This document shows, one piece after another, positions 320 to 26,019 of a stretch of DNA of 64,000 nt. Position 1 is the first letter of the stretch. Each line of letters opens with the position of its first letter. Origin of the DNA: an uncultured Pseudomonadales bacterium (lineage in GTDB: Bacteria > Patescibacteriota > Microgenomatia > UBA1400 > PJMF01); the NCBI GenBank assembly GCA_964406075.1, contig CAYOQI010000003.1, positions 76,718 through 140,717 on the forward strand, read 5' to 3'. Made by a program: the position numbers and the translations under genes. A model generated the notes under the pieces. That model did not search any database. It was not told the DNA's origin and saw only the letters and a program-made list of their open reading frames with translations.

Positions 320-817
320 ATGACGGAAAAAGTATTTGTTCCTGGCAAAGTTGTTCGTGCTGTTATTACTCGACCTCAACCAAAACCTGAGCTTGTTCGT
401 AACGAGAATCCTCAGGTACTACTGGTTGAAAGACCAAACTGGAGTGGTCAAGCAAGTGAAGATTGGCAACTTCCAGGAGGAAGAATTATTAGCTTAGAGC
501 TTCAAGCTGAAGTAGCTCGTATTATAGGTGACGAATTAGGAATTGAGATTCGACAGGATAATTCTCCAGAATATATTGGAGGATATGAAAATGGTGATTG
601 GACATCCTGGCTATATCTCTGCCAACTTTTAGAAAATCCAGGGCCATTAAGAGTGGATCTAGACAGAAATCAAGGTGTAAGGTGGTTTGATACAAATGGA
701 AAAAGATTAATCTTAGAAAGAGAACAAGACGATGTTTTAGTAGAAAAGTATCGAATTGCCTTTGATCATCACAAAATGATTTCAGATGCTTTGAAAATGA
801 TCAGAGAGAAGAATTAA
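320..817 (+). CDS. Nudix-family hydrolase (degenerate Nudix box)
   Basis: WQLPGGRIISLELQAEVARIIGDELGIE resembles GX5EX7REUXEEXGU. AAGGAG at 311-316 favours the ATG at 320 over the TTG at 305. Confidence 0.6.
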   Translation: MTEKVFVPGKVVRAVITRPQPKPELVRNENPQVLLVERPNWSGQASEDWQLPGGRIISLELQAEVARIIGDELGIEIRQDNSPEYIGGYENGDWTSWLYLCQLLENPGPLRVDLDRNQGVRWFDTNGKRLILEREQDDVLVEKYRIAFDHHKMISDALKMIREKN

Positions 818-1297
818 TTATTTTTTACTTTTCCCAATCTTAAATCTTGTTGGTTCAAAGTCTGGTTCATTAATAGCAGGAATGATTAATTGAGCATGCA
901 AATGTTTGACTGATCCAGCAGAGTAATTGGTATCTCCAAATCGGAAAGCAATTCCACCGCCGGGAATATTTTTTTCTTTTTCAATTTCTCCAAACAATTG
1001 AAACAATTCAGCTCCTGCTTCTGGTTTTAATTCAGAAATAGTTTCTGCATGATATTTTAAAATTGCCAATAAATGAAGTTCAGTGTGATCATATGGCCAT
1101 TGGTTGGACGTAATCAGCCAATACTGACCTTCTTTAAGAGTTGGTTGCTTGTGATACAGATGGAAATTTTCCATGCAAAACGGACAGTGGCCCGCATCAA
1201 TGATCTTTTGCATTTCTTCACGCTGATCATCATAGCGAGCGTTTTCGATGTCGACGAAGTTAGCTGTTTTATTTGTGTGTTGATTAAGTGTGTTCAT
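818..1297 (-). CDS. HIT-superfamily nucleotide transferase/phosphorylase (GalT/Ap4A-phosphorylase-like branch)
   Basis: CPFC motif near the N-terminus and an HLHAQLI (HxHxQ) histidine-triad variant near the C-terminus. Confidence 0.6.
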   Translation of the reverse strand: MNTLNQHTNKTANFVDIENARYDDQREEMQKIIDAGHCPFCMENFHLYHKQPTLKEGQYWLITSNQWPYDHTELHLLAILKYHAETISELKPEAGAELFQLFGEIEKEKNIPGGGIAFRFGDTNYSAGSVKHLHAQLIIPAINEPDFEPTRFKIGKSKK

Positions 1298-1408
1298 GGG
1301 AAGTATTAATTAAATAAGTTTATAACAAGAAAAATATATAACCACAAAACTAAGAATTAGCTTGTGGAGTATTGAATAGCGAAGAAATATGAAGATTTAA
1401 TCATATAT

Positions 1409-2272
1409 TTATATTGCCACAGGAATATCTTTCATTCCAGGTAGTGGATCATAGTTCTCTAATTCAAAATCATCTTTGCGGAAGTCAAATAAATTATCAT
1501 GTGTATTGATCATTTTAATTTGAGGCAAAGGCGAAGCTTCTCTTTGAATTAATTCTTTCACCGCATCAACTTGGTCGACATAAATATGGGCATCAGAAAA
1601 GCTGTGAATGTATTCATACGGTTCAAGACCAGTGACATGCGCAATCATTAACAATAATGCTGAGTACTGCACCATGTTAGCCGGAACTCCAACCGGAACA
1701 TCAGCCGAACGTTGAAACATGTGTAGAGTTAATTTTCCGTCTAAAACTCGCAGATGAATCCAACCATGACAGGGGGCAACCACCACTTTTTGGGTTCGAC
1801 CAGTTATGCGATAGGTGTATTGCGGAATCCATGGGGTGATGAAGTGAGTACGCAAATGTGGACGTTCTTTGATTTGTTGAATCACAGCCGCGAATTGATT
1901 AAACGATTCACCTTCAGCAGTTGGAAAGTCATGAAAGGCGGCTCCATATGAACCAGGTCCAAGATCACCGGTTTCCAGTCCACGTTTTTTGCACTTAGCT
2001 TCTGTCACCCAAGGATGCCACCACTTGCAGCCATATTTTTCTAACTCTTCCTGAGTGCGAGCGCCATTGATAAAAGCAATAATTTCGGCCACAGCTTGTT
2101 TCCAAAATGCTTTGATACTCCGTTCGGTAATGACTGGGAAACCTTCACTGAGTTTAAATCTTAAAGGAGGTGGAGCCATGTAGGTAAGTGCATCCGTCTC
2201 TTGTTGAGTGTTCGTGCGTTCACCATTTTCTAAAATCGTTTTGAGGAGAGTCTGATATTGAGAAAGCGGCAT
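1409..2272 (-). CDS. thyA: thymidylate synthase (ThyA type, divergent)
   Basis: APCHG catalytic Cys motif and QRSADVPVGVPANMVQY (cf. QRSxDxxLGxPFN). The dUMP-specifying Asn is retained. Confidence 0.8.
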   Translation of the reverse strand: MPLSQYQTLLKTILENGERTNTQQETDALTYMAPPPLRFKLSEGFPVITERSIKAFWKQAVAEIIAFINGARTQEELEKYGCKWWHPWVTEAKCKKRGLETGDLGPGSYGAAFHDFPTAEGESFNQFAAVIQQIKERPHLRTHFITPWIPQYTYRITGRTQKVVVAPCHGWIHLRVLDGKLTLHMFQRSADVPVGVPANMVQYSALLLMIAHVTGLEPYEYIHSFSDAHIYVDQVDAVKELIQREASPLPQIKMINTHDNLFDFRKDDFELENYDPLPGMKDIPVAI

Positions 2273-2332
2273 GTTTTCCTTCTGTTGGATTATTCAAGTT
2301 ATATCATATTGTTTGTTAAAGAGTTAAGAACT

Positions 2333-2376
2333 GGATCCCCGATCATCTGAGCAAAGTCAGATGGTCGAGGATGACA
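2333..2376. repeat. GC-rich imperfect hairpin, member E1 of the CTG(A)GATCC...GGATGACA repeat family
   Basis: CATCTGA/TCAGATG 7-bp core stem extended to about 15 bp. Shares the 5' GGATCC and 3' GGATGACA ends with the copies at 57341 and 61872. Confidence 0.5.
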
Positions 2377-2396
2377 GTTGATGGTAGTATCAGACC

Positions 2397-2906
2397 ATGC
2401 ATGTTTTTCTGATTGCTGCTATTACTATCGATGGTTATATTGCTCGAGACTCTGATCAAATTTCAACTGCTTGGACGAGTAAAGAAGATAAAGCTTTTTT
2501 TCGTGATCGTACCAAACAAGCAGGTGTGATTGTGATGGGGCGAAAAACCTTTGAAACCATTGGACGAGCATTGCCCGATCGGTTAAATATTGTATTATCG
2601 CGCCAACCTCGACCTGCAGATTTAGCGGAAGAAATTCAATGGTCAAATCAAACTCCTCAAGAATTGTTAAAATATTTAGAAGAAAAAGGTCATCAAGAAG
2701 TGGCGATTTGTGGTGGTCAACAAATTTATTCTCAATTTTTAGAAGCAGGACTCATTAACACTCTCTACTTAACAGTTGAACCTGTGGTTTTTGGAAATGG
2801 AGTGAAGTTCGTAGATCAAGTTTCAGCAGTGAATTGTCGATTAAAAAGTGAAAAAAAACTGAATGAACAAGGAACGGTTCTCCTCGAATATGAAGTTACG
2901 CATTAA
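2397..2906 (+). CDS. dihydrofolate reductase-like protein (RibD C-terminal/DHFR fold)
   Basis: IAAITIDGYIA...VIVMGRKTFETIG...NIVLSR pattern. Divergently paired with thyA. Confidence 0.7.
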   Translation: MHVFLIAAITIDGYIARDSDQISTAWTSKEDKAFFRDRTKQAGVIVMGRKTFETIGRALPDRLNIVLSRQPRPADLAEEIQWSNQTPQELLKYLEEKGHQEVAICGGQQIYSQFLEAGLINTLYLTVEPVVFGNGVKFVDQVSAVNCRLKSEKKLNEQGTVLLEYEVTH

Positions 2907-3318
2907 ACGTTTTGATAAAACCATACCTCTCCCAGAATACAAAACGATAGGTGCAGCCGGTTTCGATTTATCGTCTCGCATAACGATCACCATTTCTTCT
3001 CATCAGATTGGATATATTCCACTCAATATTGCTCTTCAATTACCTCAAAATGCTTGGTTACTTTTGTCAGCTCGCAGTTCATTACACAAAAGTGGCTTAA
3101 TGATGGCCAATGGAATTGGTGTAGGGGATCCTGATTTTTCGGGAGATGGAGATGAGTATCAAGCTGCTGTTTTTAATTTCACTGACAAAGACGTCACGAT
3201 TGAAAAAGGCCAACGGATTGTGCAAGGGATAATCATGAATCGACAGCAAGCTGAGTTTGAAGAAGTAGAAAGTTTGGGAAATGCTGATCGTGGCGGATTT
3301 GGTTCGACTGGAAAGTAG
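2890..3318 (+). CDS. dut: dUTP diphosphatase
   Basis: AGFDL, GIGVGDPDFSGD and RGGFGSTG dUTPase motifs. The ATG at 2890 overlaps the upstream stop by 17 nt. The track start at 2863 is less likely. Confidence 0.85.
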   Translation: MKLRIKRFDKTIPLPEYKTIGAAGFDLSSRITITISSHQIGYIPLNIALQLPQNAWLLLSARSSLHKSGLMMANGIGVGDPDFSGDGDEYQAAVFNFTDKDVTIEKGQRIVQGIIMNRQQAEFEEVESLGNADRGGFGSTGK

Positions 3319-3485
3319 TTCATCAGCTGGTTGGTTCAATAGTATGCTGGTTTTTCATTTCTATATATTGATTCCTTTGTACTAAATTTCTCAATAGATT
3401 GTGTGTTTTGGTTTTTGTTGGTGTTGCTGTAAGATTTTTTTTTAGTTAGAGTTACGTTCTTAGTTAATCAAATACATTCACATCC

Positions 3486-4481
3486 ATGCAAACCGTTGTT
3501 GAATCCAATAATTTCTCTCGTTTTCCTCACGTTTGGAAAAAGCTGAATAGAACTCCTGAATTTTCTCCTAACGATCTTATGCATCCTGTCGCAGAGTGGG
3601 TAGATGACCGTCCAGCTATGCAACTCGTTAATAGTGCTATTCCCTTTATGGGGCTCAGAATTATGGAAGAGACAGAAGAAATAAGAGAGGGTTTAGCCAT
3701 TGGCGGTTTAGAACTGGCGAAGGAATTAAATGATCAATTCTTTTTTGAGGCTTCACTTGCCCATAATCTAGGAAAACTTGAAGAAATTCATCTTCCATCA
3801 CTTGCGAGCCGTCTCAATGGTGTGGGTGCTCGAGATGATATCTTGGACAAAATGCGAGAAGTGGCAGGCAATATGGAAGATAAGCGAACAGTCATGAAAG
3901 ATCTTGAATGGCTGATGAGTGCTTGGATGAGCTTTTTGCGACATGGTCCGGTAGAAGCTGATCCTGTAGATATTATGAGAAAAGTTATAAAGAAAAATGG
4001 AACAAATGTGAGTGGCAATCATCCGGCAATGTACTATTCAGGAAGAGATCCATTGACAGGTGAAATCTTGAATCCTGATGAAATGTATGAGCAATATAGA
4101 GGAACCAGAGGTAAGCTTAGAGCGATTAGGATGCATACAGGAAACCGACCGGAGGGTTTAAAGCCTTCTGATCATTTACCTTTTAGAAACCTGATTAACG
4201 ATTTCAGACGGCCTGAAGAATCATTTGAGGAGCTGATGGAATATTTGACACTCACACCAAGAATCTCACAACATTTATCTGACTACTACCAAAATGCTTC
4301 AGTCAAACTTGTAACTTCTTATCATCAATATTCTCGAGATCATGCATTATCTGCTCGTGAATTAGAAACCCTTATGCCTCAGCCTGGTTTACGTGAAGAT
4401 AGTTCAACTGTGAAGTTCAAAAGCACATCTTTTAATAATTCCTCATTTTATTTGAATGCGACTGTTCGTTTCAGTCATTAA
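3486..4481 (+). CDS. hypothetical protein, possible MazG-like all-alpha NTP pyrophosphohydrolase
   Basis: MEETEEIREGLAIGGLELAKELND fits EXXE-(15)-EXXD. Sits between dut and tmk. Confidence 0.35.
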   Translation: MQTVVESNNFSRFPHVWKKLNRTPEFSPNDLMHPVAEWVDDRPAMQLVNSAIPFMGLRIMEETEEIREGLAIGGLELAKELNDQFFFEASLAHNLGKLEEIHLPSLASRLNGVGARDDILDKMREVAGNMEDKRTVMKDLEWLMSAWMSFLRHGPVEADPVDIMRKVIKKNGTNVSGNHPAMYYSGRDPLTGEILNPDEMYEQYRGTRGKLRAIRMHTGNRPEGLKPSDHLPFRNLINDFRRPEESFEELMEYLTLTPRISQHLSDYYQNASVKLVTSYHQYSRDHALSARELETLMPQPGLREDSSTVKFKSTSFNNSSFYLNATVRFSH

Positions 4482-4519
4482 TTCGCTATACTAGTTTAAA
4501 TAAAAAATAAATAAAGATT

Positions 4520-5152
4520 ATGTCCAAATATCCAGGTTTTTTAATCTCATTTGAAGGTGGAGAAGGTGGTGGTAAAACTACTCAACTCGTTCGTCTGCGG
4601 GAGCGTCTTGTTAAAGCAGGAAAAGATGTGATTGCCTTGCGTGAGCCAGGAGGCACAGTCATCTCTGAACAAATTCGGGAAGTAGTTCTATCAAGCAAAA
4701 ATGTCGGAATGGCATACACAACTGAAGTTCTACTTTTTCAAGCTGCTCGTGCACAAATTTACCGAGAAATTGTATTACCTTCATTAGAAGTTGGAAAAAT
4801 TGTGTTAATGGATCGAACTCGAGATAGTTCGGTGGTCTACCAAGGCATGGTGCGAAAGTTTGGCGTTGAGACGATTCACATGCTGAATGATTTATCCACC
4901 AAAAGTACTGTTCCTGATCTCACCTTTTTACTTGATATTGATGTAGTAACTGGTCTCACTCGTCGCGGTGAAGCCGGTGATGTCAATCGTTTGGATATGG
5001 AAGCAGAAAAATTTCATGAACAGGTGAGAACCGCATATTTAGAATTGGCCAAAAACAATGATCACAAACGCTGGAATATCATCAATGCAGGACAAGAAAT
5101 AGAAAAAGTGGAAGAGGATATTTGGAAGGTAGTACAGGAGAAAGCAAAATAA
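4520..5152 (+). CDS. tmk: thymidylate (dTMP) kinase
   Basis: P-loop FEGGEGGGKTTQ, a REPGGT motif and a DR...SS..YQG pattern. Confidence 0.9.
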   Translation: MSKYPGFLISFEGGEGGGKTTQLVRLRERLVKAGKDVIALREPGGTVISEQIREVVLSSKNVGMAYTTEVLLFQAARAQIYREIVLPSLEVGKIVLMDRTRDSSVVYQGMVRKFGVETIHMLNDLSTKSTVPDLTFLLDIDVVTGLTRRGEAGDVNRLDMEAEKFHEQVRTAYLELAKNNDHKRWNIINAGQEIEKVEEDIWKVVQEKAK

Positions 5153-5157
5153 TATTT

Positions 5158-5553
5158 ATGGATAATCGAGAAAATAGTATAAACAATCCGGTTGAAAAAA
5201 TTGTGAAAGAGTACAAAGAAAAAGTGAATGGGAATCCGGCTTCGGCTGTGTATTTATTGGCAAAAGATATTTTAAATCATTCACACGAAACTCAAACTGA
5301 TCCATCAACAGAGATGCAAAGTGCATTGCAAAAACTGTATGGTGAAGCTATTAGTAAATACTCTGCAGGATTGACTGGTCCATTAGCCAATTGCATACAA
5401 ACAGGATCTTTGGCTTTAGCCGTTAAAGAATTGTATGAATGGTCAAGAAGTCCTGCTGAATCAAGGTTGCAATTGTATTCAGGTAAAATTAAGTTACGCC
5501 CTATGAGCGAGAATTATTTTTCACTTTTAGATAGTCCAGGAGGAAGGGGATAA
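5158..5553 (+). CDS. hypothetical protein
   Basis: ORF with no recognisable motif. The ATG at 5158 is preferred to the TTG at 5122, which overlaps tmk. Confidence 0.4.
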   Translation: MDNRENSINNPVEKIVKEYKEKVNGNPASAVYLLAKDILNHSHETQTDPSTEMQSALQKLYGEAISKYSAGLTGPLANCIQTGSLALAVKELYEWSRSPAESRLQLYSGKIKLRPMSENYFSLLDSPGGRG

Positions 5554-5555
5554 GA

Positions 5556-5900
5556 ATGGTTGAGAAAAGCGAACAAACCGAGATGCAAGGTATAGAAAAG
5601 AACGAATATTTAGAAATAATCCGTAAAAAATTGATTCCGTTAGTTTCAGACGAAAATATTACTGAAGAGCAGATTATTAGGGTTGCAAGTGAACTATGGA
5701 CAAAGTTAAAAAGTAAAGTAAGTGATACTGAAATTTTAGAATGGATAGAGAAGCAGGAAGCAAAAAAAGATTGGTTGGCGAAAGTTATAAGGCCTCACAG
5801 TAAAATTTCATTTGGTACAGCCATGTGGTGGTTTGCTCAGGGAAAAGCATTACCTCTCGACAATGTGAGAAGCTCTTGGACGAGTCATAATAAACAATAA
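5556..5900 (+). CDS. hypothetical protein
   Basis: ORF starting 2 nt after the previous stop. No recognisable motif. Confidence 0.4.
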   Translation: MVEKSEQTEMQGIEKNEYLEIIRKKLIPLVSDENITEEQIIRVASELWTKLKSKVSDTEILEWIEKQEAKKDWLAKVIRPHSKISFGTAMWWFAQGKALPLDNVRSSWTSHNKQ

Positions 5901-5962
5901 AAAAATTTCAGAATTAGAGACATGTTGAAAAATTTGGCAACAGAAACTAAAAAGGAAGATAC

Positions 5963-6628
5963 ATGAAAAAAAATAGCAAATATGATCTTTTTATTTTTGA
6001 TTTTGATGGAACACTAGCAGATTCAAGACTTAATATTATTAATAGTCTAAATTTTGCCCTCAATACACAAGGTTTATCACCCATAGAAGGAAAAAGAATA
6101 ACACCTCTCATTGGTAAAATGTCACTAGATAACACTTTTTTATATTTTTATCCTGAACTAAAAACAGTACAAATTGAGAAATTGTTAGAAGAATTTCGCA
6201 TATACCAACGAGAACATGCTCACGAGGAGTTAGTATTTTTCCCAGAAGTATTATCAACGCTAGAGAAACTGTATAAACAAAAAAAAATGCTAGCGATATT
6301 GACAACAAAACATATTAGTCAGATCACATACATTCTTAAATTGTTTAAGATTGATCACTTTTTTGATGTTGTTTTGGGGGAAGGTGTGATCTCGCAAAGG
6401 AAACCAGCGTCTGAATGTGTAGGGTATATTTTATCATCACTATCAGTTCCACTTGATAAGTCAAAGGTTGTAATGATAGGTGATTCATCTGTGGATGTTC
6501 TGTCTGCTCAGAATGGAGGTATTGATATGATTGCTGTTGGTCATGGTACAGATAGCCTTGAGTCTTTAAAAGAAATGGGTGCAATATTTACAGTCAACAC
6601 TTTTTCAGAAATTTTGCAATATACATAA
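5963..6628 (+). CDS. HAD-superfamily phosphatase (phosphoglycolate-phosphatase-like)
   Basis: DFDGTLADS motif I, TTK motif II and GDSSVD motif IV. Confidence 0.8.
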   Translation: MKKNSKYDLFIFDFDGTLADSRLNIINSLNFALNTQGLSPIEGKRITPLIGKMSLDNTFLYFYPELKTVQIEKLLEEFRIYQREHAHEELVFFPEVLSTLEKLYKQKKMLAILTTKHISQITYILKLFKIDHFFDVVLGEGVISQRKPASECVGYILSSLSVPLDKSKVVMIGDSSVDVLSAQNGGIDMIAVGHGTDSLESLKEMGAIFTVNTFSEILQYT

Positions 6629-6646
6629 AGTATTTTAAAAATTAAA

Positions 6647-7540
6647 ATGGTTGAAAAAATTTTGGGTGTCGGGTATGTAGTTACTGATGTGATTCAAGGT
6701 AAAGAGTATCTTGGTGGTGCGGCTGCAGGTATTGCTATTAACGGAAAAAATTTAGGCTTAGATACAGGATTGCTTGCATTGTTGGGAGGAGATGAAAGAA
6801 GTAAAAAATATCTTTTAAAACTTTTAGAAATTGGGGTAGATCTCACACATTTAATCAATGTGCCAGAAGCAAATATACCCAAAAATGAGATGAATCATGA
6901 TGATCGGACCAAGGGGTGGAATGATTTCGGGATTGGAGCATTTTTTACTGACATACAGCTGGAAAAAGATGTTTTAGCTAATTATGGGATTGTCCATATA
7001 GCAAGTGCACATCCATTTTTAGTAAACAAAGTTTTAGAAAGAAAACTTTACAATAACTTGATGTTTACATATTCACCTGGTCCAAAAATTGTTAATGACC
7101 CAGCTTTTTTGAACAAGGATTGCCTTAGAGCATCTGAAGTGTTATTTCTTAATGAGACTGAGTGGAAGGCAATAAGAAATCAATTACAGATTGATACTCC
7201 TCAAAGTTTATTTTCTTATGGACCCAATGTTGTTATTATTTCAAAAGGAAGCGAAGGAATTAGTGCATTTAGTCAGTCTAGCTTAGGGAGAGAAGAATTC
7301 CTTCCATCAATTTCATGGGAAGATCCTGAAACGACTGGAGCAGGGGATGCATTAGCTTTAGGATTCGTGATTGGATACACACAACATTTAGGAGTTGCTA
7401 CTTCTCTAGAATTGGGACGATTTTTGTCATTTTGTGCTATCCAAAAACCTGGAGTAATTCTAGATGAGTCTGAATTGGGAAAATTTCAATTATTCTTAAA
7501 ACAACAAGGTGTTTCTGTCCAGCAGAAAGGAAAACATTGA
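6647..7540 (+). CDS. PfkB-family sugar/nucleoside kinase
   Basis: N-terminal GGAAAG pattern and the C-terminal TTGAGDALALGF signature. Confidence 0.75.
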   Translation: MVEKILGVGYVVTDVIQGKEYLGGAAAGIAINGKNLGLDTGLLALLGGDERSKKYLLKLLEIGVDLTHLINVPEANIPKNEMNHDDRTKGWNDFGIGAFFTDIQLEKDVLANYGIVHIASAHPFLVNKVLERKLYNNLMFTYSPGPKIVNDPAFLNKDCLRASEVLFLNETEWKAIRNQLQIDTPQSLFSYGPNVVIISKGSEGISAFSQSSLGREEFLPSISWEDPETTGAGDALALGFVIGYTQHLGVATSLELGRFLSFCAIQKPGVILDESELGKFQLFLKQQGVSVQQKGKH

Positions 7541-8274
7541 GTAATCAGTCTAAAAATATTATAGTTACTGGAGCTAATGGTGGATTGGGAACGGCTATTG
7601 TCCAAAGATTAATTGAAGAGAAATTCTCTCTTATTTTATTTGATAATAATAACAGTCAATTGGAAAGCTTTTCAGAGCTAGCACTCAAAAATGATACTTT
7701 GCTTAAATTTTTTACATTTGATATCTCAAATCCCACAAATATTAAGGAAATTTTTCAACAATTGGAATCTGAGTATGACTCAATTTTTGGTCTTGTGAAT
7801 AACGTAGGAATTTACCCAATAAAAAGACTTGAAGAGTATACTCTAGAACTTTGGCATCAAGTGGTTGATGTAAATCTCACTTCAGCATTTTTATGTACAC
7901 AGTTAGTTTTACCATTTATGAAAAAAGCTGGCGGAAAAATAATCAATATTGCATCAACAGGCGCCCATTTAGGGAGTCGTGATCCAGGTTATAGTTCATC
8001 AAAAGCAGGATTGATAGGTTTGACAAAATCATGTGCCCGCAATCTAAGTCAATATAATATTCAGGTAAATGCAATAGCACCGGGGATGATTGATACACAA
8101 ATGTCCAGGAGAATGAGGCCTGAAGATCGACAAAAGAATGTCGAAATGAGTTTAGTGCGAAGAATGGGAATCCCTACAGATGTGTCAGGAGTTGTACAGT
8201 TCTTACTTTCTTCAGATTCAGATTACATTAATGGGTTTACAATAGATGTGAATGGAGGAATGTATATCCGATAG
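7537..8274 (+). CDS. short-chain dehydrogenase/reductase (SDR)
   Basis: TGANGGLGTAI cofactor motif and YSSSKAG catalytic motif. The TTG start overlaps the upstream stop by 4 nt. Confidence 0.8.
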   Translation: MSNQSKNIIVTGANGGLGTAIVQRLIEEKFSLILFDNNNSQLESFSELALKNDTLLKFFTFDISNPTNIKEIFQQLESEYDSIFGLVNNVGIYPIKRLEEYTLELWHQVVDVNLTSAFLCTQLVLPFMKKAGGKIINIASTGAHLGSRDPGYSSSKAGLIGLTKSCARNLSQYNIQVNAIAPGMIDTQMSRRMRPEDRQKNVEMSLVRRMGIPTDVSGVVQFLLSSDSDYINGFTIDVNGGMYIR

Positions 8275-8335
8275 TTTTAAAAGAATTTAGAGTAGATATA
8301 TGTTACAAAGTAAAGCAATTTGAAAAGAGGAAAAG

Positions 8336-8965
8336 ATGTCAGATGTCATCGAAATTTTAAAAGAAGTCAATGCGATTATCATAGATAGTCACCTTGTGGG
8401 CACCTCAGGACGTCATATGAGTGTCTACATAAATAAAGATGCACTCTTTCCACATGCAAACGCAGCTTCAAAAGTTGGCGAATTATTTGCTAAGAAGTAT
8501 CAAGACAGGGGCATTGAAGTCATTGTTGCCCCAGCCATGGGAGGCATTATTTTGTCACAGTGGACTGCTTTTCATTTATCGAAACTTACAGGTCAAGAAG
8601 TTTTTGGAGTTTATACTGAAAAAACTGGTGATAATGGACAGGTATTTAAGCGTGGTTATGACACCTTTGTGAAAGGCAAAAAGGTTTTGGTTATTGAAGA
8701 CCTGACTACTACCGGTGGTTCTGTGAAAAAAGTAGTGGATGTTGTTCGAGAAGAAGGTGGAGAAGTGGTAGAAGTATGTGTGATGGTAAATCGTGATGAA
8801 AAAATGGTCAATGCAAAAAGTGTTGGTGCCCCTTTTTCTTCTTTAGGAATTTTTCCTGCTGTTTCGTATAGCGAAGAAGAATGTCCTCTATGTAAACAAG
8901 GCATACCGATAAATACAAAGGTAGGTCATGGAAAAGCATTTTTGAAAAAACAACAATCAAGATAA
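8336..8965 (+). CDS. pyrE: orotate phosphoribosyltransferase-like type I PRTase
   Basis: PRPP-binding motif VLVIEDLTTTGGS. Lies immediately upstream of pyrF. Confidence 0.65.
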   Translation: MSDVIEILKEVNAIIIDSHLVGTSGRHMSVYINKDALFPHANAASKVGELFAKKYQDRGIEVIVAPAMGGIILSQWTAFHLSKLTGQEVFGVYTEKTGDNGQVFKRGYDTFVKGKKVLVIEDLTTTGGSVKKVVDVVREEGGEVVEVCVMVNRDEKMVNAKSVGAPFSSLGIFPAVSYSEEECPLCKQGIPINTKVGHGKAFLKKQQSR

Positions 8966-8992
8966 GATTTATATAATTTACTACCTAACTAC

Positions 8993-9850
8993 ATGTTTCC
9001 GCTTGATAAGCTTCACCAGCGTCAAAATAAAACGAACTCTCTCCTTTGTATTGGATTAGATCCTGATTTCTCAAAAATTTCTGCTCAATTTTCAAAATTA
9101 AAATTTCCACAATTTGAATTTAATAAATGGATCATTGAACAAACTCATGAATATGCTTTGGCGTACAAACCAAACACTGCTTTTTACGAGGCACGAGGGA
9201 GTCAAGGTTGGAAAGAGCTAGAAATGACAATGGAGTATTTGCATAAAAATCACCCCGATATTTTTACGATTGCAGATGCGAAGCGGGGAGATATTGGTTC
9301 GACGAACCAAGGATATGTGACGGCTATTTTTGATCATCTTGGTTTTGATGCTGTCACGATTCACCCATTCACTGGATCAGAAGGTTTGTCTCCATTTTTA
9401 GAAAGACAAGATAAAGTTTCCATCGTTTTGTGTCATACGTCGAATCCAGGAGCAAAGGAGTTGCAGGAAATGCGTTTGCAAACAGAATTGGCTAACGACG
9501 ACGGGATCCCTCTCTCGACTGAAAGTCGGGATCGGGATGACAGTTTATTATTATGGCAAATTATTGCTGAGAAAGTTGTGAATGATTGGAATAAAAACAA
9601 AAACTGTATGCTGGTGGTGGGAGCGACATTCCCAGAAGAACTAAAAAAAGTTCGGGAAATAGTGGGAGATATGTGGCTACTTATCCCTGGCATAGGATCT
9701 CAAGGAGGTGACCTGGATGCAGTTTTGGAAAATGGTTTAACTGCTAAAAAAGACGGAGTACTCATCAATGCTTCCCGAAGTATTATTTTTGCAGAGTCAC
9801 CAAAAGATGAGGCTGAAAATTTGGTTAGACAAATGCAAAAGTTGCTTTAA
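8993..9850 (+). CDS. pyrF: orotidine-5'-phosphate decarboxylase, type 2
   Basis: IGLDPD, YKPNTAFY, DAKRGDIGST, PGIGSQGG and NASRSI motifs. Confidence 0.85.
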   Translation: MFPLDKLHQRQNKTNSLLCIGLDPDFSKISAQFSKLKFPQFEFNKWIIEQTHEYALAYKPNTAFYEARGSQGWKELEMTMEYLHKNHPDIFTIADAKRGDIGSTNQGYVTAIFDHLGFDAVTIHPFTGSEGLSPFLERQDKVSIVLCHTSNPGAKELQEMRLQTELANDDGIPLSTESRDRDDSLLLWQIIAEKVVNDWNKNKNCMLVVGATFPEELKKVREIVGDMWLLIPGIGSQGGDLDAVLENGLTAKKDGVLINASRSIIFAESPKDEAENLVRQMQKLL

Positions 9851-9899
9851 AATTCTTACTTTTTTCCTGCAATATTTTATATACAATACTCTCATAAGA

Positions 9900-9928
9900 T
9901 TGATAATCAGGTAGTTTTTTGATATAAT
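9900..9928 (+). promoter_or_regulatory. sigma70-type promoter (TTGATA-17 nt-TATAAT)
   Basis: TTGATA at 9900-9905, a 17-nt spacer and TATAAT at 9923-9928. Confidence 0.5.
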
Positions 9929-9935
9929 TTACTCG

Positions 9936-10016
9936 ATGAGACAGCAAAATTTTAATCATTGGAAAAATAAAATAAGTCTTTGTATGAAGACCTATTTTTT
10001 ATTTAAAATTATCTAA
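9936..10016 (+). CDS. candidate leaderless 26-aa mini-ORF (MRQQNFNHWKNKISLCMKTYFLFKII)
   Basis: The ATG lies 7 nt after the -10 box. The stop TAA at 10014-10016 abuts the 5' arm of the terminator hairpin. Confidence 0.25.
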   Translation: MRQQNFNHWKNKISLCMKTYFLFKII

Positions 10017-10042
10017 ACCGCCATTAATAGGCGGTTTTTTTT
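10016..10042 (+). terminator. intrinsic terminator/attenuator hairpin abutting the next start codon
   Basis: AACCGCC-attaata-GGCGGTT followed by a T8 run that ends at the ATG at 10043. Confidence 0.6.
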
Positions 10043-11536
10043 ATGAAAAATATGGCACTCAATCAAGAAGCTTCCAGACTTTATAACGACCATAAAGTTA
10101 GAGACCTTATTCATAAAAGTAGAAATGAAGCAACTTCTCATTATAAAAATGTCAAATTGAAGGGTGGAGAAATTGCCGAGCTTCGAAGAGAAGGACATTA
10201 TCCTGTGGTTACAAATGAAGGTAGGTTTGATGCCACACTCTTACGAGTCATCCCAACTAAATCGGAAAATCGATCCCGAGGAGGTGAGTTTAGAGTGTTA
10301 GCGAATGAGAAAGTCGAGCAAGGAAGTGAAGCTAAGGTCAAAATAGTTCTTGAGTGTATTCCCATTTTTTTGAAAGAATTAAGTGATGAACAAGTACAAA
10401 TGAAATTAGCGAAAACGAGAACTGAAATTAGCCAAGCAGAAACTCCTGCTTTTTTAGTACAAACTAGAGCTTCCGATATCCACGATGGCGAGTACCGAGA
10501 TACTTGGGATGGTCAATCTGATTTAAGAGAAGAGGTTTGGTATGCACAAGTCTTACAAATCATGGAGTTATTTCCAGGGATGCCTTTTTTAAAAGCTGCA
10601 TCTATTTTCGTGAAGTTGAAAAAAGATTTGTATGCCTCTGACTTTGGACTAGGTGTAGAAGCTGTTATTCATCATTATTACTCTGGGAAAGAACCCGAAG
10701 ATCTTGAAACAGAAGTGTTAGATGGATCAAACTTTATTAATTCATTTCCAGATGAATCGAATCCTTTCGTACAAGATAATTGGGATATTGATGAAGTAAT
10801 TGAAAATTACCATGAGGAAATTCAAGATGCTTTGGCAAAAGTAACAGAAGAAAATTACGAAAATATTAGAATTGATGAAAAAGATTATGAGTTAAGAACT
10901 TTAGCGTCATATCCTATTATGCAAAGTGGTGTGAAGTTTCAAGTTAAACTTATTATGGCTCGAGATCCTGATGGAGTATCTTTTCAAACCTTTAGAGTTT
11001 TACAATATGGAGATATTTCAGATGCTTACGTACGAGTAGATTCGATTTGTACAAATGGAGTTCAAGGTGGTGATACACATTGCGAGTGTCGACAACAGAG
11101 TGAAGCTGAGAAACAGCGAGCAGCCAGTGGAATTCCTATGATGTTAATTAATGTTCGAGATGATGAAGGTAGATTTCATGGTGAAGGAGACAAAGGTGGA
11201 ACTTTAAACTTACAACGAATGATTTTAGAACAATTGAGGACCGAGGTAGGAAATGCTGTTGCAGCTCAATTGTATTATCACGAAACAGGGAAGCTAGTGG
11301 ATGCACGAAGTTATGAATTAACTCAGGCGCTTTTAAAGTATTTAGGAGTAAACAAAATAGCACATTTAGTTACAGATAATGTTAGAAAGATTGATGCGAT
11401 TAGTGAAGTCGCAGAAATTGAGGAAGTGGTAACAGCAGAAGTACTGGCCCTTTCGTCAGAAGCACGAAAAACTATTCAAGAAAAAGCTGGAGGAGGAATC
11501 CCAGGTGTGCCCTATCTTTACAATAACCAGAGCTAA
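10043..11536 (+). CDS. two-domain protein: unknown N-terminal ~330 aa plus C-terminal GTP cyclohydrolase II-like domain
   Basis: VRVDSICTNG...THCECRQQ...DDEGRFHG...LGVNKIAHLVTDN parallels RibA VRVHSECxTGD...RCDCGxQ...EGRGIG...LGVxxVRLLTNNP. Three Cys are retained. Confidence 0.55.
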   Translation: MKNMALNQEASRLYNDHKVRDLIHKSRNEATSHYKNVKLKGGEIAELRREGHYPVVTNEGRFDATLLRVIPTKSENRSRGGEFRVLANEKVEQGSEAKVKIVLECIPIFLKELSDEQVQMKLAKTRTEISQAETPAFLVQTRASDIHDGEYRDTWDGQSDLREEVWYAQVLQIMELFPGMPFLKAASIFVKLKKDLYASDFGLGVEAVIHHYYSGKEPEDLETEVLDGSNFINSFPDESNPFVQDNWDIDEVIENYHEEIQDALAKVTEENYENIRIDEKDYELRTLASYPIMQSGVKFQVKLIMARDPDGVSFQTFRVLQYGDISDAYVRVDSICTNGVQGGDTHCECRQQSEAEKQRAASGIPMMLINVRDDEGRFHGEGDKGGTLNLQRMILEQLRTEVGNAVAAQLYYHETGKLVDARSYELTQALLKYLGVNKIAHLVTDNVRKIDAISEVAEIEEVVTAEVLALSSEARKTIQEKAGGGIPGVPYLYNNQS

Positions 11537-11542
11537 AAAATC

Positions 11543-12388
11543 ATGGTAACTTTTTTATCAAAATTAATTTCATCACTAGAAACTAAGAAGTCTCATGTCT
11601 GTGTCGGTCTCGATTCTCGTTATGATCGAATTCCGGAACTCATAAAAAAAGGAAAATCTGTTTCTGAAGCAATTTTTGAGTTCAATAAAAATGTGGTTGA
11701 AGCTACTCATGAGTATACTTCTGCGTACAAAAGTAATGTAGCGTTTTATGCTGGATTTGGAGAAGAAGGATTAAAGGGTTTGCAAAAAACCAATGAATTT
11801 CTTAAAACAAATTATTCCGATATTCCACTGTTAGCTGACTGCAAACGATCCGAGATGGGTGAGTCGGTGAAGATGATTAAAGCTGAAATTTTCGATTGGT
11901 TGCAATTTGATTGTGTGATGGTCACGCCTTGGTTTGGCTTTGATACAGTTCGAGATTATTTAGACGAAGAAAAAAACGGAGTCTGTGTGTACGTTCACGA
12001 TAGCAATCCCACCGCGGAAGAATTTCAAGAAGTCGAACTCAAAGATGGACGACGACTCTATGAATATGTGACGGAAAGAGTTTGTCAGGTTTGGAATGTG
12101 AGTGGAAACGTGTTTATAGAAGCAGGAGCGACATATCCTGAAGCACTCAAAAAAGTTCGAAAAATTGCAGGTGATGACATGGTGATTCTTACAGCGGGTG
12201 TGGGTACTCAAGGTGGGAAAGTCGAAGACTTGAAAGGTGTATTTGGAAAAGATGGGCAACGATTATTGGTCAATAGTTCTCGTGGAATTATTTTTGCGGG
12301 TGAAAATAAACCAGATTACTTCGTTGCAGTCAAAGAATCCGCTCAACAACTTCGTAACACATTACGTTCTGCTTCAAAAATCAGCTAA
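11543..12388 (+). CDS. OMP-decarboxylase-family paralog (type 2 fold, variant active-site motif DCKRSE)
   Basis: VGLDSRYD, YKSNVAFY, ADCKRSEMGES, AGVGTQGG and NSSRGIIFA align with the pyrF motifs at 8993-9850. Confidence 0.7.
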   Translation: MVTFLSKLISSLETKKSHVCVGLDSRYDRIPELIKKGKSVSEAIFEFNKNVVEATHEYTSAYKSNVAFYAGFGEEGLKGLQKTNEFLKTNYSDIPLLADCKRSEMGESVKMIKAEIFDWLQFDCVMVTPWFGFDTVRDYLDEEKNGVCVYVHDSNPTAEEFQEVELKDGRRLYEYVTERVCQVWNVSGNVFIEAGATYPEALKKVRKIAGDDMVILTAGVGTQGGKVEDLKGVFGKDGQRLLVNSSRGIIFAGENKPDYFVAVKESAQQLRNTLRSASKIS

Positions 12389-13209
12389 TGGTACTTTTTC
12401 CTCAACTTGTAGTGATCGGTTATACCAATATTGATATTAATATAACTCCGTTGTCGAAAACTGTGCTTCCTGGTGGAGGTGCATATTTTGCAGCTATTGC
12501 AGCTTCTAGAATTATCAAACCAGTGGGATTAGTAACCAGAATTGGAAAAGATTATGAGGCGGAGTTTTTACTCTCTCGAGTTATTCCGGATGGTGTAAAA
12601 ATTATCCCTGAAAAATTAACTGCTCGTTCTACGCAAATTTATCATTCCGAAAAAGATTTAACTGACAGAGATATTCAATTGGAATGGGGAGTGGCTCCTG
12701 ATATAAATCCTCAAGATTTTCCAAGAGAGTGGTTAGAAAAAGCTGAAATTGTACATATTTCGACTATGCCTCCAGCTCAACAAACTGAATTCATTCGATT
12801 TTTACGCAAGCATGCTCCGCAAACCAAAATTTCTTTAGATACGGATCACTTCTTTTTTGAAGATAAAAATTTGTTTGAACAAATTAAAGAAAATTTTTCG
12901 AAAGTTGATATAGCCTTTGCAAATCGCCATGAATACTTGGCATTAAAAGAAACGATTGATCAGTTGCCGGAAGCGATTGTGAAGTTTGATAAAGATGGAG
13001 CCGATTACTTACAACATGGGAAAAAGATTTTTCATATTCCAACACAAGCAGTGGAAGTCAAAGATGCGACGGGAGCGGGTGATATGTTGGCTGGAACATA
13101 TTTGGCATTGATTATTAAAAGTGAATCAAAAGAAAAAGCATTAAAACTTGCAGTAGAAGTGGCAACAGAATCGGTGAAAGAGGTGGGAGTAAAACACATA
13201 TTCAAATAG
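12388..13209 (+). CDS. PfkB-family sugar/nucleoside kinase (second copy)
   Basis: DATGAGDMLAGTYLA signature. The ATG overlaps the upstream TAA by 1 nt. Confidence 0.7.
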   Translation: MVLFPQLVVIGYTNIDINITPLSKTVLPGGGAYFAAIAASRIIKPVGLVTRIGKDYEAEFLLSRVIPDGVKIIPEKLTARSTQIYHSEKDLTDRDIQLEWGVAPDINPQDFPREWLEKAEIVHISTMPPAQQTEFIRFLRKHAPQTKISLDTDHFFFEDKNLFEQIKENFSKVDIAFANRHEYLALKETIDQLPEAIVKFDKDGADYLQHGKKIFHIPTQAVEVKDATGAGDMLAGTYLALIIKSESKEKALKLAVEVATESVKEVGVKHIFK

Positions 13210-15618: not shown

Positions 15619-17178
15619 ATGAGTGTAGATCAAATTAGTTACAAAGATTTATTACAAGATCCAGATCAAGCTGAAGCGTATATTCAAGAAATCTTTGCTA
15701 TTTGTGAAAAGAATGGATTTATTCATTGGTTACTTTCTGAGATTGCAAGAGAGAGTAAAGGGCCCGAGGAAGCATATCCAGCGCAAGGATTAGTTTTTAC
15801 AGGATATGAAGGTTTCGGGGATATAGAACCAAAAAGAGATGAATTACAGCCACAACTTGTTGATACGACAATATTAGCTTGGTTATACTATCTTACCTTA
15901 AATAATCACCCCGACAGGTTACAATCACTTTACGAGCAATCAGAAAAACCTTTTGTACCGCCACAAGAAATTGAGTCCCCAATATTTGAGAACGCCCGCA
16001 AAGAACGTCGAGCTATAAATATTGCCGATTTAAAACTCCAGGTGGGTGGAACTGATAAATCTCGACGAAGTAGAACAGAGTTACACCAATCAGGACCTTT
16101 TGTTTCTTACTATCATCCAACTGATAAAGAGCCTTCTAAAGGGAGAAAACAAGCTCGAGGGGTAATAGTTGCTGGGGCAAATCCTGAAATTACAGGTAGC
16201 CCTTTTGCTTTGGCGACTCTAGTGCAATCACATTCCTTAGCATCTGTACCCAGAGATGGGCTTTTTTCAAAAATTCAAAGGCAGGTAGATTTGGTCCGAA
16301 AAACAATTGAATTCTTAGAACGAAGTCCGATGTTATATAACAAAGATGAAGAAGAACGGAAAAAGTTATTGGAATTTTATACACATAATTTAGTTGGAGT
16401 TATTGAGCCTGAACCGAAAAAAGCACTCAAAAGAGCACGAGCTTTATATGAGGCAGGTATACGGACTTTTAGAATTTATTCTCCAGAGCCAGGTAATGAT
16501 TCATTAAGAACTTTGGTTGATTTACGAAAAGCAGAAAATGAAGAAGGATGGGAACCAATTGAAATTTTTGTGGGCCAGGTTGTTGATGTTGAACAAGCTA
16601 TTGCATTACAAAAAGCTGGAGCTGATGCTCTCTATTTTGGTATTGGTGGAGGTGGAAGATGTATTACAGGAGTAGTGGGAGGACTCACAATTAACTGGCC
16701 ACAATTAGTTTGGGATTTACGTGGAAAGATTTCAGTACCCATGCTTGTGGAAGGTGGAGCAAACGATTATATATCAGAGTCATTAACGATTGGAGCAAGT
16801 GGTATTGGGACTGTAGGAAAATTTGGAGGAACGATTGAAACTCCAGGTTCTATTGCCTTTTATATTGATGAAGAAGGGCAAGTGTTTAAATTTTATGGCG
16901 GAGAAGCTTCAGATAGAATGAGAGTAATGGGAGGTAGAAAAGGTCCTTTTGGATTTGTGTTAAATACAGAAGGTGAAACCACTAAGAAGAAAAAGAGAAA
17001 TGGTGTGCAAAGATTACCGACCTTGAGTCAAGTTCTTCATGAACTTAATCAAGGAGTGGTAGCAGGAATGGTATTTCAAAATGCAGGATCGGTGAGTGAA
17101 CTTCAGCAATTAGCAAATCGTTCTCTTTTACAGGCATCACCGAATGATGACGCATCTAGACACACTCATAATAAATAA
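15619..17178 (+). CDS. IMPDH/GMP-reductase-family paralog with a ~250-aa unknown N-terminal extension
   Basis: The C-terminal half has GIGGGGRCITG (Cys retained), VEGGAN and GTIETPGS..FKFYGGEAS, mirroring IMPDH barrel motifs. Confidence 0.55.
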   Translation: MSVDQISYKDLLQDPDQAEAYIQEIFAICEKNGFIHWLLSEIARESKGPEEAYPAQGLVFTGYEGFGDIEPKRDELQPQLVDTTILAWLYYLTLNNHPDRLQSLYEQSEKPFVPPQEIESPIFENARKERRAINIADLKLQVGGTDKSRRSRTELHQSGPFVSYYHPTDKEPSKGRKQARGVIVAGANPEITGSPFALATLVQSHSLASVPRDGLFSKIQRQVDLVRKTIEFLERSPMLYNKDEEERKKLLEFYTHNLVGVIEPEPKKALKRARALYEAGIRTFRIYSPEPGNDSLRTLVDLRKAENEEGWEPIEIFVGQVVDVEQAIALQKAGADALYFGIGGGGRCITGVVGGLTINWPQLVWDLRGKISVPMLVEGGANDYISESLTIGASGIGTVGKFGGTIETPGSIAFYIDEEGQVFKFYGGEASDRMRVMGGRKGPFGFVLNTEGETTKKKKRNGVQRLPTLSQVLHELNQGVVAGMVFQNAGSVSELQQLANRSLLQASPNDDASRHTHNK

Positions 17179-22638: not shown

Positions 22639-22717
22639 AGTGTTCTTTCTGGTAGATTGTACCATTTTATTCATGTATCGAACTGATATAGTCATTTTTT
22701 TTAACTAAAAAATGCAT

Positions 22718-22741
22718 AAAAAAAGCTCCGGTTGGGAGCTT
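22718..22741 (-). terminator. intrinsic terminator (attenuator) between the His-rich mini-ORF and hisS
   Basis: On the minus strand: AAGCTCC-caacc-GGAGCTT followed by a T run. Confidence 0.65.
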
Positions 22742-22766
22742 GGTCAATGTTGGTCTATAAAGAAAA

Positions 22767-22841: not shown

Positions 22842-22849
22842 ACGACTTA

Positions 22850-23409: not shown

Positions 23410-23427
23410 TGAATATCTTTTCTAAAA

Positions 23428-23483: not shown

Positions 23484-23484
23484 A

Positions 23485-25990: not shown

Positions 25991-26019
25991 CCACGTTAGT
26001 TGTTAATTGAAGGAGAAGT

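Follow-up and report, generated by a model that had tools for sequence, protein, structure and literature searches.

A divergent GTP cyclohydrolase II-like protein and an OMP decarboxylase paralog form a conserved gene pair in Patescibacteria

We noted that a 64,000-nt stretch of contig CAYOQI010000003.1 (the whole of which is called the window here) carries, at 5963–13209, eight co-directional open reading frames (ORFs) on the + strand, two of which form a gene pair that recurs well beyond this genome. One is a 497-aa protein with a C-terminal GTP cyclohydrolase II (GCH II) domain, which together with its homologues is called GCH2L. The other is the second of two orotidine 5′-monophosphate (OMP) decarboxylase (OMPDC) genes in the cluster; the first copy is termed OMPDC-A and the second OMPDC-B. 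The core of the system is a GCH II homologue lacking the equivalent of RibA Tyr105 together with OMPDC-B, usually a PfkB-family kinase, and often a HAD phosphatase, a further PfkB kinase and a short-chain dehydrogenase/reductase (SDR), and it is conserved in dozens of loci from Patescibacteria. The module is found in a setting of pyrimidine nucleotide metabolism and is neither a riboflavin pathway nor simply a pyrE/pyrF route to UMP. Families were called from Pfam and NCBIfam profile scores relative to each model's cut-off; L-numbers, P-numbers and the JGI contig (that of protein P0005) denote the loci and proteins used for comparison.

Using OMPDC-B signatures, 37 further metagenome loci were retrieved, and GCH II-domain partners were sought across all loci by hidden Markov model searches. 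Among the ∼30 non-redundant loci that could be assessed, a GCH II-domain gene lay no more than 2 kb from OMPDC-B in 24, usually immediately upstream and often overlapping. GCH2L itself was followed directly by the OMPDC in every locus with enough flanking sequence (L004, L005, L006, L009 and the JGI contig) and lay within 2 kb of it in L001, a contig of 1.07 Mb. In a sister clade the same order was seen: L007 has a NUDIX gene, GCH2L, the OMPDC and an AA_kinase gene (probably pyrH), and L008 has GCH2L, the OMPDC and a cytidine deaminase, with cmk further on. The pairing also held where the N-terminal domain of the partner was unrelated. When the species-representative genomes were scanned, a single short contig, L009, was returned.

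The wider gene set was conserved to differing extents. A gene resembling the second PfkB kinase of the window (PfkB2) adjoined OMPDC-B in 11 loci (L001, L004, L006, L011, L014, L017, L018, L025, L039, L043 and L048). The gene order was GCH2L, OMPDC-B, PfkB, HAD, PfkB, SDR and AA_kinase (probably pyrH), with overlapping junctions, in the Ca. Woesebacteria genome L048; GCH2L, OMPDC-B, HAD, PfkB, SDR and AA_kinase (again probably pyrH) in the JGI contig; and GCH2L, HAD, a truncated SDR, a hydrolase, OMPDC-B and PfkB in L001. HAD and SDR genes thus accompanied the pair in all three, and a second PfkB was present in L048 and the JGI contig. Six of the eight window genes (GCH2L, OMPDC-B, PfkB, HAD, PfkB and SDR) therefore form a set conserved in four genomes, namely the window, L048, the JGI contig and L001. 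The phosphoribosyltransferase (PRTase) of the window, which is PyrE-like, was not in the orthologous operons of L048, L001 and the JGI contig; PyrE-type PRTases were found near the pair in L011, L019 and L040, and a true Upp only in L004. Within this operon, the PyrE-like PRTase and the canonical OMPDC-A are inserted genes specific to the window. An initial annotation, made from the window's letters alone, had named co-conservation of the eight genes as a test of its reading: co-conservation was seen for GCH2L, OMPDC-B and PfkB in dozens of loci, and for HAD, PfkB and SDR in the four genomes, but not for the PRTase, OMPDC-A or the eight genes as a unit.

The position of the pair was also compared between genomes. 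Window positions 21397–29895 are syntenic with 443–10775 of the Ca. Pacebacteria genome L049, sharing genes for HisRS, an M24 peptidase, a Glucodextran_B protein, Lactamase_B_3, DnaB and LGT. In L049 the GCH2L/OMPDC-B pair lies between DnaB and LGT, where the window has a tRNA-Leu and a 148-aa ORF; the module is therefore mobile between positions. In the type-III loci L039 and L043, a protein encoded between PfkB2 and the GCH II gene gave a faint match to a phosphatase catalytic domain (E 0.003, residues 31–44).

OMPDC-B (11543–12388) is, as judged by sequence, a distinct and highly conserved Patescibacteria subfamily. Its members are 57–83% identical across loci, and a database search gave more than 120 proteins with at least 53% identity, named pyrF in metagenome-assembled genomes (MAGs) of Patescibacteria, Woesebacteria, Pacebacteria and Doudnabacteria, which agrees with the earlier guess that the family belongs to the candidate phyla radiation. 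The OMPDCs linked to GCH2L were 57–70% identical to OMPDC-B of the window and 33–40% to its OMPDC-A; the two window copies share 38% identity. OMPDC-B scored 198.1 bits on pyrF_sub2 (TIGR02127, cut-off 110.6). A canonical A-type pyrF was present beside it in three loci (the window, L012 and L040), and most of the short contigs showed only the B copy.

We compared the motifs of OMPDC-B with a canonical set taken from the A-type copies of the window, L012 and L040 and from PDB 3r89, the closest true PyrF. The ribose-binding aspartate region reads GLDSRYDR(I/L)P in the core clade of OMPDC-B and GLDS followed by variable residues in distant members, compared with GLDP or GLDS followed by variable residues in canonical enzymes. 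The catalytic motif is ADCKRSEM rather than DAKRxDI, with DCKRSEM (residues 99–105, nt 11837–11857) invariant; within D99-C-K101-R-S-E104, glutamate replaces the second aspartate of Asp-x-Lys-x-x-Asp throughout the subfamily. The strand after the catalytic loop reads TPWFG against the canonical HP(F/Y)xG, the region before GAT reads xE(A/G)xxTYP against VVGAT, the base-binding motif is HDSNP against (H/R)TSN, and the phosphate loop is LTAG(V/I)G against IPG. The base motifs thus depart from those of type-2 enzymes (TSN to DSN and IPG to TAG), and the grip on ribose and phosphate is kept, with D24, K63, Q223-G224 and S246-R247 invariant. The Lys-Asp-Lys triad, including both catalytic lysines, is still present. 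A role as a KGPDC/HPS-like sugar-acid decarboxylase was considered and rejected, as OMPDC-B is far closer to PyrF.

GCH2L is listed at 10043–11536. The initial annotation had seen in its C-terminus a resemblance to GCH II with a three-cysteine zinc site, and both features were confirmed. The protein scored 35.2 bits on GTP_cyclohydro2 (PF00925, cut-off 23.3) over residues 319–456. The AlphaFold2 model was confident (pLDDT 88, pTM 0.88), and its C-terminal ∼220 residues superposed on RibA of Escherichia coli (2bz0, Foldseek E 6.7e-8, target TM 0.71) and of Helicobacter pylori (4rl4). The GCH II fold begins near residue 272, so that the N-terminal domain, put at 330 residues in the annotation, is nearer 270; this part had no match in the PDB by Foldseek. 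The start codon is probably ATG 10052 (MALNQE) rather than the listed ATG 10043 (MKNMALNQE), because homologues open with MAL, MKL or MSL and ATG 10043 overlaps the T-run of a terminator-like hairpin. The family is small: a set of 5.8 billion proteins contained only 12 homologues, and searching 1.84 billion representatives with a profile brought in one more full-length protein (giving ∼13) together with the sister clade, which has the same architecture at 19–21% identity.

The zinc site of GCH2L, CX2GX7CXC, comprises Cys336, Cys347 and Cys349 (codons 11048–11050, 11081–11083 and 11087–11089) and aligned with that of RibA; it was invariant in 12 of 12 family members. This is the zinc motif of RibA, in which Arg128 contacts the α-phosphate for pyrophosphate release (PMC10366380). 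In a numbered alignment of the partner classes with RibA and the RibBA proteins P0132 and P0088, Arg128 corresponded to Arg422 of GCH2L and was invariant in every partner class, Tyr105 to Leu388, and His51 was replaced by aspartate. Ren and co-workers are said to have found in 2005 that Tyr105 hydrogen-bonds the activated, zinc-bound water, and Spoonamore and Bandarian reportedly observed in 2008 that a Streptomyces coelicolor GCH II with a natural Tyr-to-Met change stops at the formamidopyrimidine. GCH2L fell below the RibA cut-offs (41 against 206 bits on TIGR00505 and 34 against 148 on NF001591). From its fold and residues, GCH2L is a RibA-derived and very divergent GCH II zinc enzyme whose resemblance to GCH II is real. 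The conservation of all the catalytic zinc and arginine residues argues against decay into a degenerate ribA.

These features extended to the partners of OMPDC-B in other loci, which range from 271 to 544 aa, with N-terminal extensions of at least three unrelated kinds. In all partners Cys54, Cys65, Cys67, the EGR motif, Lys101 and Arg128 (RibA numbering) are kept, and all lack Tyr105, which is mostly replaced by leucine and otherwise by tryptophan, threonine, histidine or glutamate; the RibBA proteins P0132 and P0088 keep the tyrosine. Likeness to RibA was graded, with NF001591 scores of 172 bits for L036, 157 for L019 and 152 for L011 down to the 34 of the window protein. Between lineages the partners fall to ∼20% identity while OMPDC-B stays at 57–83%. 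In two distantly related loci, L001 (7501–9834) and L036 (5794–7890), a PPDK_N-domain protein of 700–777 aa encoded on the opposite strand adjoins the GCH II-like gene.

The neighbourhood of the pair was surveyed by running Pfam on 124 flanking proteins. The counts were GTP_cyclohydro2 13, PfkB 11, Pribosyltran 5 (plus 2 UPRTase), Tmk 3, HAD 3, and 2 each for dCTP-deaminase-like proteins, the uridine kinase family, GMP synthase, thymidine kinase, dNK and AA_kinase. None of FolB, FolK, FolP, PTPS, RibD, RibH, RibE or RibB was among the 25 commonest neighbour families, nor was URC4 (DUF1688) or urea amidolyase among these or the window ORFs scanned, or another urea-degrading gene among the frequent neighbours. 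GuaA was found near the pair in the window, L004, L012 and L021, and ThyA, DHFR, SHMT or FolD within 10 kb in the window, L004, L013 and L049. NUDIX genes lay beside or near it in L007, L036 and the window. In L004 (3488–5050), thymidylate synthase was called as one 520-aa product with MtrA-like and pterin-binding DUF4346 domains.

Two loci place the pair among genes of the de novo pyrimidine type. In L040 the order is carA, carB, the GCH II gene (271 aa), OMPDC-B, pyrB, pyrC, pyrD, pyrK, a PHI-like SIS protein, an A-type pyrF and pyrE; this is the only locus where a full pyrB/pyrC/pyrD set accompanies the pair. In L011 a PRK06886-family amidohydrolase, a weakly dihydroorotate dehydrogenase (DHOD)-like protein and PyrE precede the GCH II gene (538 aa), an OMPDC-B 83% identical to that of the window, and PfkB2. 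Of these upstream genes of L011 (1534–4231), the amidohydrolase scored 428 bits on PRK06886 and is cytosine-deaminase-like, and the second encodes a very divergent DHOD/PreA-like flavoenzyme. With PyrE they may form an alternative route feeding an orotate-like base. The SIS protein of L040 (10498–11022), directly before the A-type OMPDC, resembles 6-phospho-3-hexuloisomerase (TIGR03127 150 bits, cut-off 160); OMPDC and hexulose-phosphate synthase share one suprafamily.

In the window, GCH2L is preceded by a 192-nt gap (9851–10042) containing a promoter-like site at 9900–9928 (TTGATA-17-TATAAT with an extended TG), which at 11/12 is the best consensus match of the region. A 26-codon upstream ORF (uORF) follows at 9936–10016, with a small hairpin and U-tract (GUCUU..AAGAC) at 9975–10000. 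The uORF stop abuts a terminator-like hairpin at 10015–10045 (8 bp, 5 of them GC, followed by T8). This was the sole intergenic + strand terminator-like site in the window that is far from the previous gene (165 nt) and close to the next start (6 nt), and the folding z-score of the leader was −3.3. The gap holds both the promoter-like site and the terminator-like hairpin, and the cluster is probably transcribed as two units divided at this point.

A uORF of 16–31 codons with a terminator touching the GCH II start was also present in L001, L004, L006, L014, L040 and L048, the uORFs ending from ∼30 nt before the hairpin to inside it (distances read off the sequences); in L040 the pyr genes too are headed by this layout. 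Between loci whose proteins are only ∼50% identical, the motif GUCUU...AAGA(C) was conserved, as were the letters surrounding the uORF stop. No Rfam family scored above threshold for the leader, and six leaders aligned with MAFFT gave no consensus pairs in RNAalifold, so that it is the architecture that is documented. The pyrBI and pyrE genes of E. coli have UTP-sensitive leader-peptide attenuators, and such attenuators switch genes on when pyrimidines are scarce. By analogy, the GCH2L leader is a candidate leader-peptide attenuator: like pyrBI and pyrE it has a promoter, a short uORF ending close to the terminator, a U-rich tract and an intrinsic terminator before the first structural gene, although it shows no sequence relationship to them. 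A second strong terminator-like hairpin at 31466–31488 of the window (GGACCACC..GGTGGT + T9) overlaps the annotated GTG start of ORF 31482–32669; either that start is wrong, as is probable, or this gene too is preceded by a terminator.

The remaining genes of the cluster matched the domains given in the initial annotation, as did the gene overlaps (a 4-nt TTGA overlap at 7537–7540 and a 1-nt overlap at 12388). All are on the + strand. The HAD-IA phosphatase (5963–6628) is PGP/PpaX-like, with 127 bits on HAD_2 and its best NCBIfam matches far under equivalog cut-offs. PfkB kinase 1 (PfkB1, 6647–7540; PfkB 80 bits) is nucleoside-kinase-like; its best solved relative is Methanocaldococcus jannaschii MJ0406 (E 1.6e-14), deposited as ‘sugar kinase MJ0406’, which we take to be a nucleoside kinase. 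The FabG-like SDR (7537–8274, TTG start) scored 182 bits on adh_short_C2 and 213 on NF009466 (cut-off 222). The PyrE-like type I PRTase (8336–8965) matched Pribosyltran, with pyrE_Therm as the best NCBIfam model (133 bits, cut-off 150). OMPDC-A (8993–9850) is a canonical type-2 OMP decarboxylase (PyrF) matching OMPdecase, with 222 bits on pyrF_sub2 and the motifs DAKRGDI, HPFTG, HTSNP and VVGAT. PfkB2 (12388–13209; PfkB 105 bits) is sugar/ribokinase-like, its best solved relatives being generic KDG/sugar kinases.

The cluster lies in a nucleotide-metabolism island, with NUDIX, ThyA, DHFR, dUTPase and Tmk genes upstream and adenosine deaminase, GuaB, an IMPDH-like protein and GuaA downstream; past ∼19.6 kb the genes are of housekeeping type. 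Profiles were scanned on 38 further window ORFs, 28 of which had a Pfam match; no rib, fol or pyrB/C/D gene was among these 38, which do not cover every ORF. The absence of riboflavin genes nearby, as claimed in the initial annotation, thus held for the ORFs scanned and for the frequent neighbour families. Within the island, a 519-aa protein between guaB and guaA (15619–17178) showed a partial, weak IMPDH/GMP-reductase barrel (residues 258–500, 67 bits), its N-terminal ∼250 aa being unassigned. A 331-aa ORF at 3486–4481 had no Pfam match; its EETEEIRE stretch is reminiscent, by eye only, of MazG-type NTP pyrophosphatases. Two small unassigned ORFs (5122–5553 and 5556–5900) are also found there. 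The DHFR ORF (2397–2906) also matched RibD_C (72 bits) and overlaps the dUTPase ORF (2863–3318) by 44 nt, with ThyA divergent upstream. Elsewhere in the window, a 1603-aa ORF at 33421–38232 coincides with a GC content of 0.45–0.48 (∼0.38 elsewhere) and with many long antisense ORFs.

As to the chemistry, the model that we consider the best, and hold tentatively, is that GCH2L opens the ring of a nucleoside triphosphate (NTP) and OMPDC-B then decarboxylates the product, in a route resembling the fungal URC pathway. GCH2L would take the triphosphate, release pyrophosphate and hydrolyse the ring once, at the carbon adjoining the glycosidic nitrogen. Attack on a carbonyl carbon, such as C2 of UTP or CTP, would yield a 5′-monophosphate in which a carbamate or carboxyl group, and not a formamide, adjoins the ribosyl nitrogen. 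No Tyr105-dependent deformylation would be needed, and OMPDC-B would remove the group as CO2. GCH2L is placed before OMPDC-B because GCH II-type enzymes yield a ring-opened 5′-monophosphate and the OMPDC barrel binds 5′-phosphoribosyl compounds. A carbamate product, whether from C2 of UTP or CTP or from C8 of 8-oxo-GTP, would explain both the universal loss of Tyr105 and the partner from a decarboxylase family. PfkB1 and the neighbouring UMP kinase (PyrH) might feed nucleosides in and so supply the NTP; HAD could dephosphorylate the ribosyl fragment, the SDR reduce a C3 aldehyde and PfkB2 re-phosphorylate ribose, with parallels in fungal URC and bacterial Rut. The physiological direction could be ribose or nitrogen salvage, or control of the pyrimidine pool. 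Conversion of a purine to a pyrimidine via a Dimroth-type rearrangement was dropped as chemically implausible.

It is possible, if some way short of probable, that the couple performs a reaction pair undescribed in nucleotide metabolism. This might be excision of C2 from a pyrimidine NTP (zinc-dependent ring opening with pyrophosphate release, followed by carbamate decarboxylation) or, more radically, a route to an OMP-like nucleotide, and through it to UMP, that does without pyrB, pyrC and pyrD. Either way it would be attenuator-controlled by pyrimidine supply and would serve as a private pyrimidine branch for otherwise auxotrophic Patescibacteria.

Several considerations weigh against ring opening followed by decarboxylation. 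The chemistry is inferred, and the roles of HAD, SDR and PfkB2 are assigned by family. Degradation of UTP would be odd in organisms thought to be pyrimidine auxotrophs, and no URC4-like or urea-degrading gene is among the 25 commonest neighbour families. The partners in L036, L019 and L011 pass the RibA subfamily cut-off, which makes guanine nucleotide substrates plausible. OMPDC-B retains nearly the whole catalytic constellation of an OMPDC and could simply decarboxylate OMP. The position of the pair inside the de novo pyr operon of L040 and behind PyrE in L011 points to a role in pyrimidine supply as much as in catabolism, and the uORF and U-rich terminator recall attenuators active under pyrimidine scarcity.

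These last points bear on a reading that we judge somewhat unlikely, in which OMPDC-B is an ordinary PyrF, or acts on a substrate close to OMP, and ends a pyrimidine supply route; GCH2L upstream would make or deliver its substrate or act as a regulator, and UMP would be raised under scarcity. The 198 bits on pyrF_sub2 (cut-off 110) and the naming as pyrF in Patescibacteria MAGs agree with this, as do a conservation of 57–83%, which suggests a core function, and the finding that OMPDC-B is the sole OMPDC seen in most loci. The gene order PyrE, GCH II, OMPDC-B, PfkB2 in L011, the AA_kinase gene (probably pyrH) directly after the cluster in L048, L007 and the JGI contig, the place of the pair within carAB-pyrBCDK-pyrF-pyrE in L040, and a leader resembling the pyrBI/pyrE attenuators of E. 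coli point the same way. However, a canonical A-type pyrF stands beside the B copy in the window, L012 and L040, a redundancy that is unlikely if these genomes are only ∼1 Mb; the invariant DxKxxE, DSN and TAG are not in 3r89; and the obligatory GCH II neighbour is left unexplained. To our knowledge, no hydrolytic reaction of a GCH II-type enzyme gives OMP. The presence of OMPDC-B with altered motifs beside a canonical pyrF, and the lack of pyrB/C/D among the window ORFs scanned, uphold the view of the initial annotation that plain de novo UMP synthesis does not account for the cluster. Its further suggestion, a catabolic or salvage route by ring opening, kept the ring-opening type of enzyme and the co-conservation in its favour, but the L040 context and the attenuator-like leader point equally to supply.

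A route from GTP, which we consider unlikely, would have GCH2L open the imidazole ring in the manner of RibA, perhaps stopping at the 5-formamido stage, with OMPDC-B acting on the phosphoribosylamino-pyrimidine, for instance by an Amadori rearrangement or a deformylation, the SDR a reduction and HAD a dephosphorylation, so that the end product would be a pterin or ribitylaminopyrimidine. The graded series from partners passing NF001591 to the window protein, the conserved Arg128 and zinc site, and the formamidopyrimidine reportedly formed by the S. coelicolor Tyr-to-Met GCH II all suit such a route. So do GuaA near the pair (window, L004, L012 and L021), ThyA/DHFR/SHMT/FolD within 10 kb (window, L004, L013 and L049), and the fact that both the riboflavin and the folate pathway continue with HAD phosphatases and reductases; in the analogous case of Chlamydia, RibA and TrpF make dihydroneopterin phosphate (PMC4161248). 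The pterin idea is weakened by the lack of a linked Fol, PTPS or Rib family among the 25 commonest neighbours or the window ORFs scanned. OMPDC-B also keeps decarboxylase residues that would be superfluous for an isomerase, two PfkB kinases are left without a role, and the linkage to pyrE, pyrH and the pyr operon goes unexplained. The chemical logic of carbamate formation would apply equally to sanitation of the nucleotide pool, in which GCH2L would open 8-oxo-GTP or 8-oxo-dGTP at the C8 carbonyl to an N7-carbamate and decarboxylation by OMPDC-B would complete the removal of a mutagenic nucleotide. Hydrolysis of 8-oxo-dGTP is an activity of E. coli RibA, NUDIX genes are found close to the pair in L007, L036 and the window, and the window island includes a dUTPase; yet six genes with two kinases and an SDR would be excessive for this task, the pyrE/pyrH/pyr-operon linkage and the attenuator would have no explanation, and the support is by analogy, making it very unlikely. 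Least credible, and barely so at all, is that the ordinary annotation suffices, with pyrE and two pyrF genes for de novo synthesis or orotate salvage beside a degenerate ribA, and kinases, phosphatase and reductase present by chance. All family-level matches are indeed to ordinary families, but this is contradicted by the co-conservation in 24 of ∼30 loci with partners sharing ∼20% identity, by the recurrence of the six-gene set with overlapping junctions, by the lack of any other riboflavin gene or of pyrB/C/D among the window ORFs scanned, and by the conserved zinc and arginine residues, which oppose decay.

Very few functional offshoots are known of either OMP decarboxylase or GTP cyclohydrolase II, both of them textbook enzymes. 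An OMPDC paralog with altered motifs, locked to a GCH II homologue lacking Tyr105 across deep Patescibacteria lineages, offers a testable case of a new two-enzyme nucleotide reaction, and it bears on how ultra-small symbiotic bacteria thought to be without nucleotide biosynthesis manage their pyrimidine pools. Genes that automatic annotation of these genomes calls ‘pyrF’ and ‘ribA’ have probably been mis-assigned, and the conserved uORF/terminator leader is possibly the first regulatory RNA element for this operon. A literature search gave no paper on the GCH2L/OMPDC-B gene pair, on a URC1 structure or on PDB 7ej3/7eev.

Among known systems, the fungal URC pathway combines a GCH II homologue with a PRTase and other genes, its steps being uncharacterised (PMC7530994). 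The window cluster is similar in that its GCH II homologue is not part of riboflavin synthesis and is accompanied, in pyrimidine surroundings, by a PRTase and an SDR. It differs from the fungal set (URC1, the uracil PRTase URC6, the SDR URC8, URC4 and urea amidolyase) in that its PRTase is PyrE-like, no URC4 or amidolyase is among the frequent neighbours, and it has an OMPDC paralog where URC has none; the SDR kept in the six-gene operon, compared with URC8, is FabG-like by sequence. Of the URC-like enzyme set proposed initially, the GCH II homologue stands at family level, whereas the PRTase is not of URC6 type. The mapping also fails on URC4, which like the urea genes is not among the frequent neighbours; the analogy is a reasonable but unproven lead. 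GCH2L matched PDB 7ej3 with an E-value of only 0.11, and 7ej3 and 7eev, which may be URC1-like, keep the Tyr105 position that GCH2L has lost.

In comparison with E. coli RibA (2bz0), GCH2L shares the fold, CX2GX7CXC, EGR, Lys101, the Arg128 equivalent and the TNN-x-K region. It differs by the Tyr105 to Leu and His51 to Asp changes, the added ∼270-aa N-terminal domain, the neighbouring OMPDC paralog and the lack of riboflavin genes nearby. Like the reported S. coelicolor Met variant, it has lost the Tyr105 equivalent while keeping the zinc and pyrophosphate-release residues, which predicts a stop after the first hydrolysis; unlike that variant, it has leucine rather than methionine and a different domain architecture and gene context. 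OMPDC-B shares with type-2 PyrF (TIGR02127, 3r89) its length, GLDS, the lysine of AYK, D-x-K and the Q-G-G and S-S-R phosphate grip, and is set apart by DCKRSEM, TPWFG, HDSNP, TAG and the GCH II-like neighbour.

In Chlamydia, RibA and TrpF bypass FolE/FolQ (Adams et al. 2014, PMC4161248). There the barrel is a phosphoribosylanthranilate isomerase and the two enzymes were recruited from two pathways, whereas the Patescibacteria barrel is of the OMPDC family with decarboxylase residues, and its gene is adjacent to and co-evolving with the GCH II gene, with no folate genes linked. By analogy, the two systems would have in common a GCH II enzyme coupled to a phosphate-binding (β/α)8 barrel that acts on the 5′-phosphoribosyl product, with a phosphatase following.

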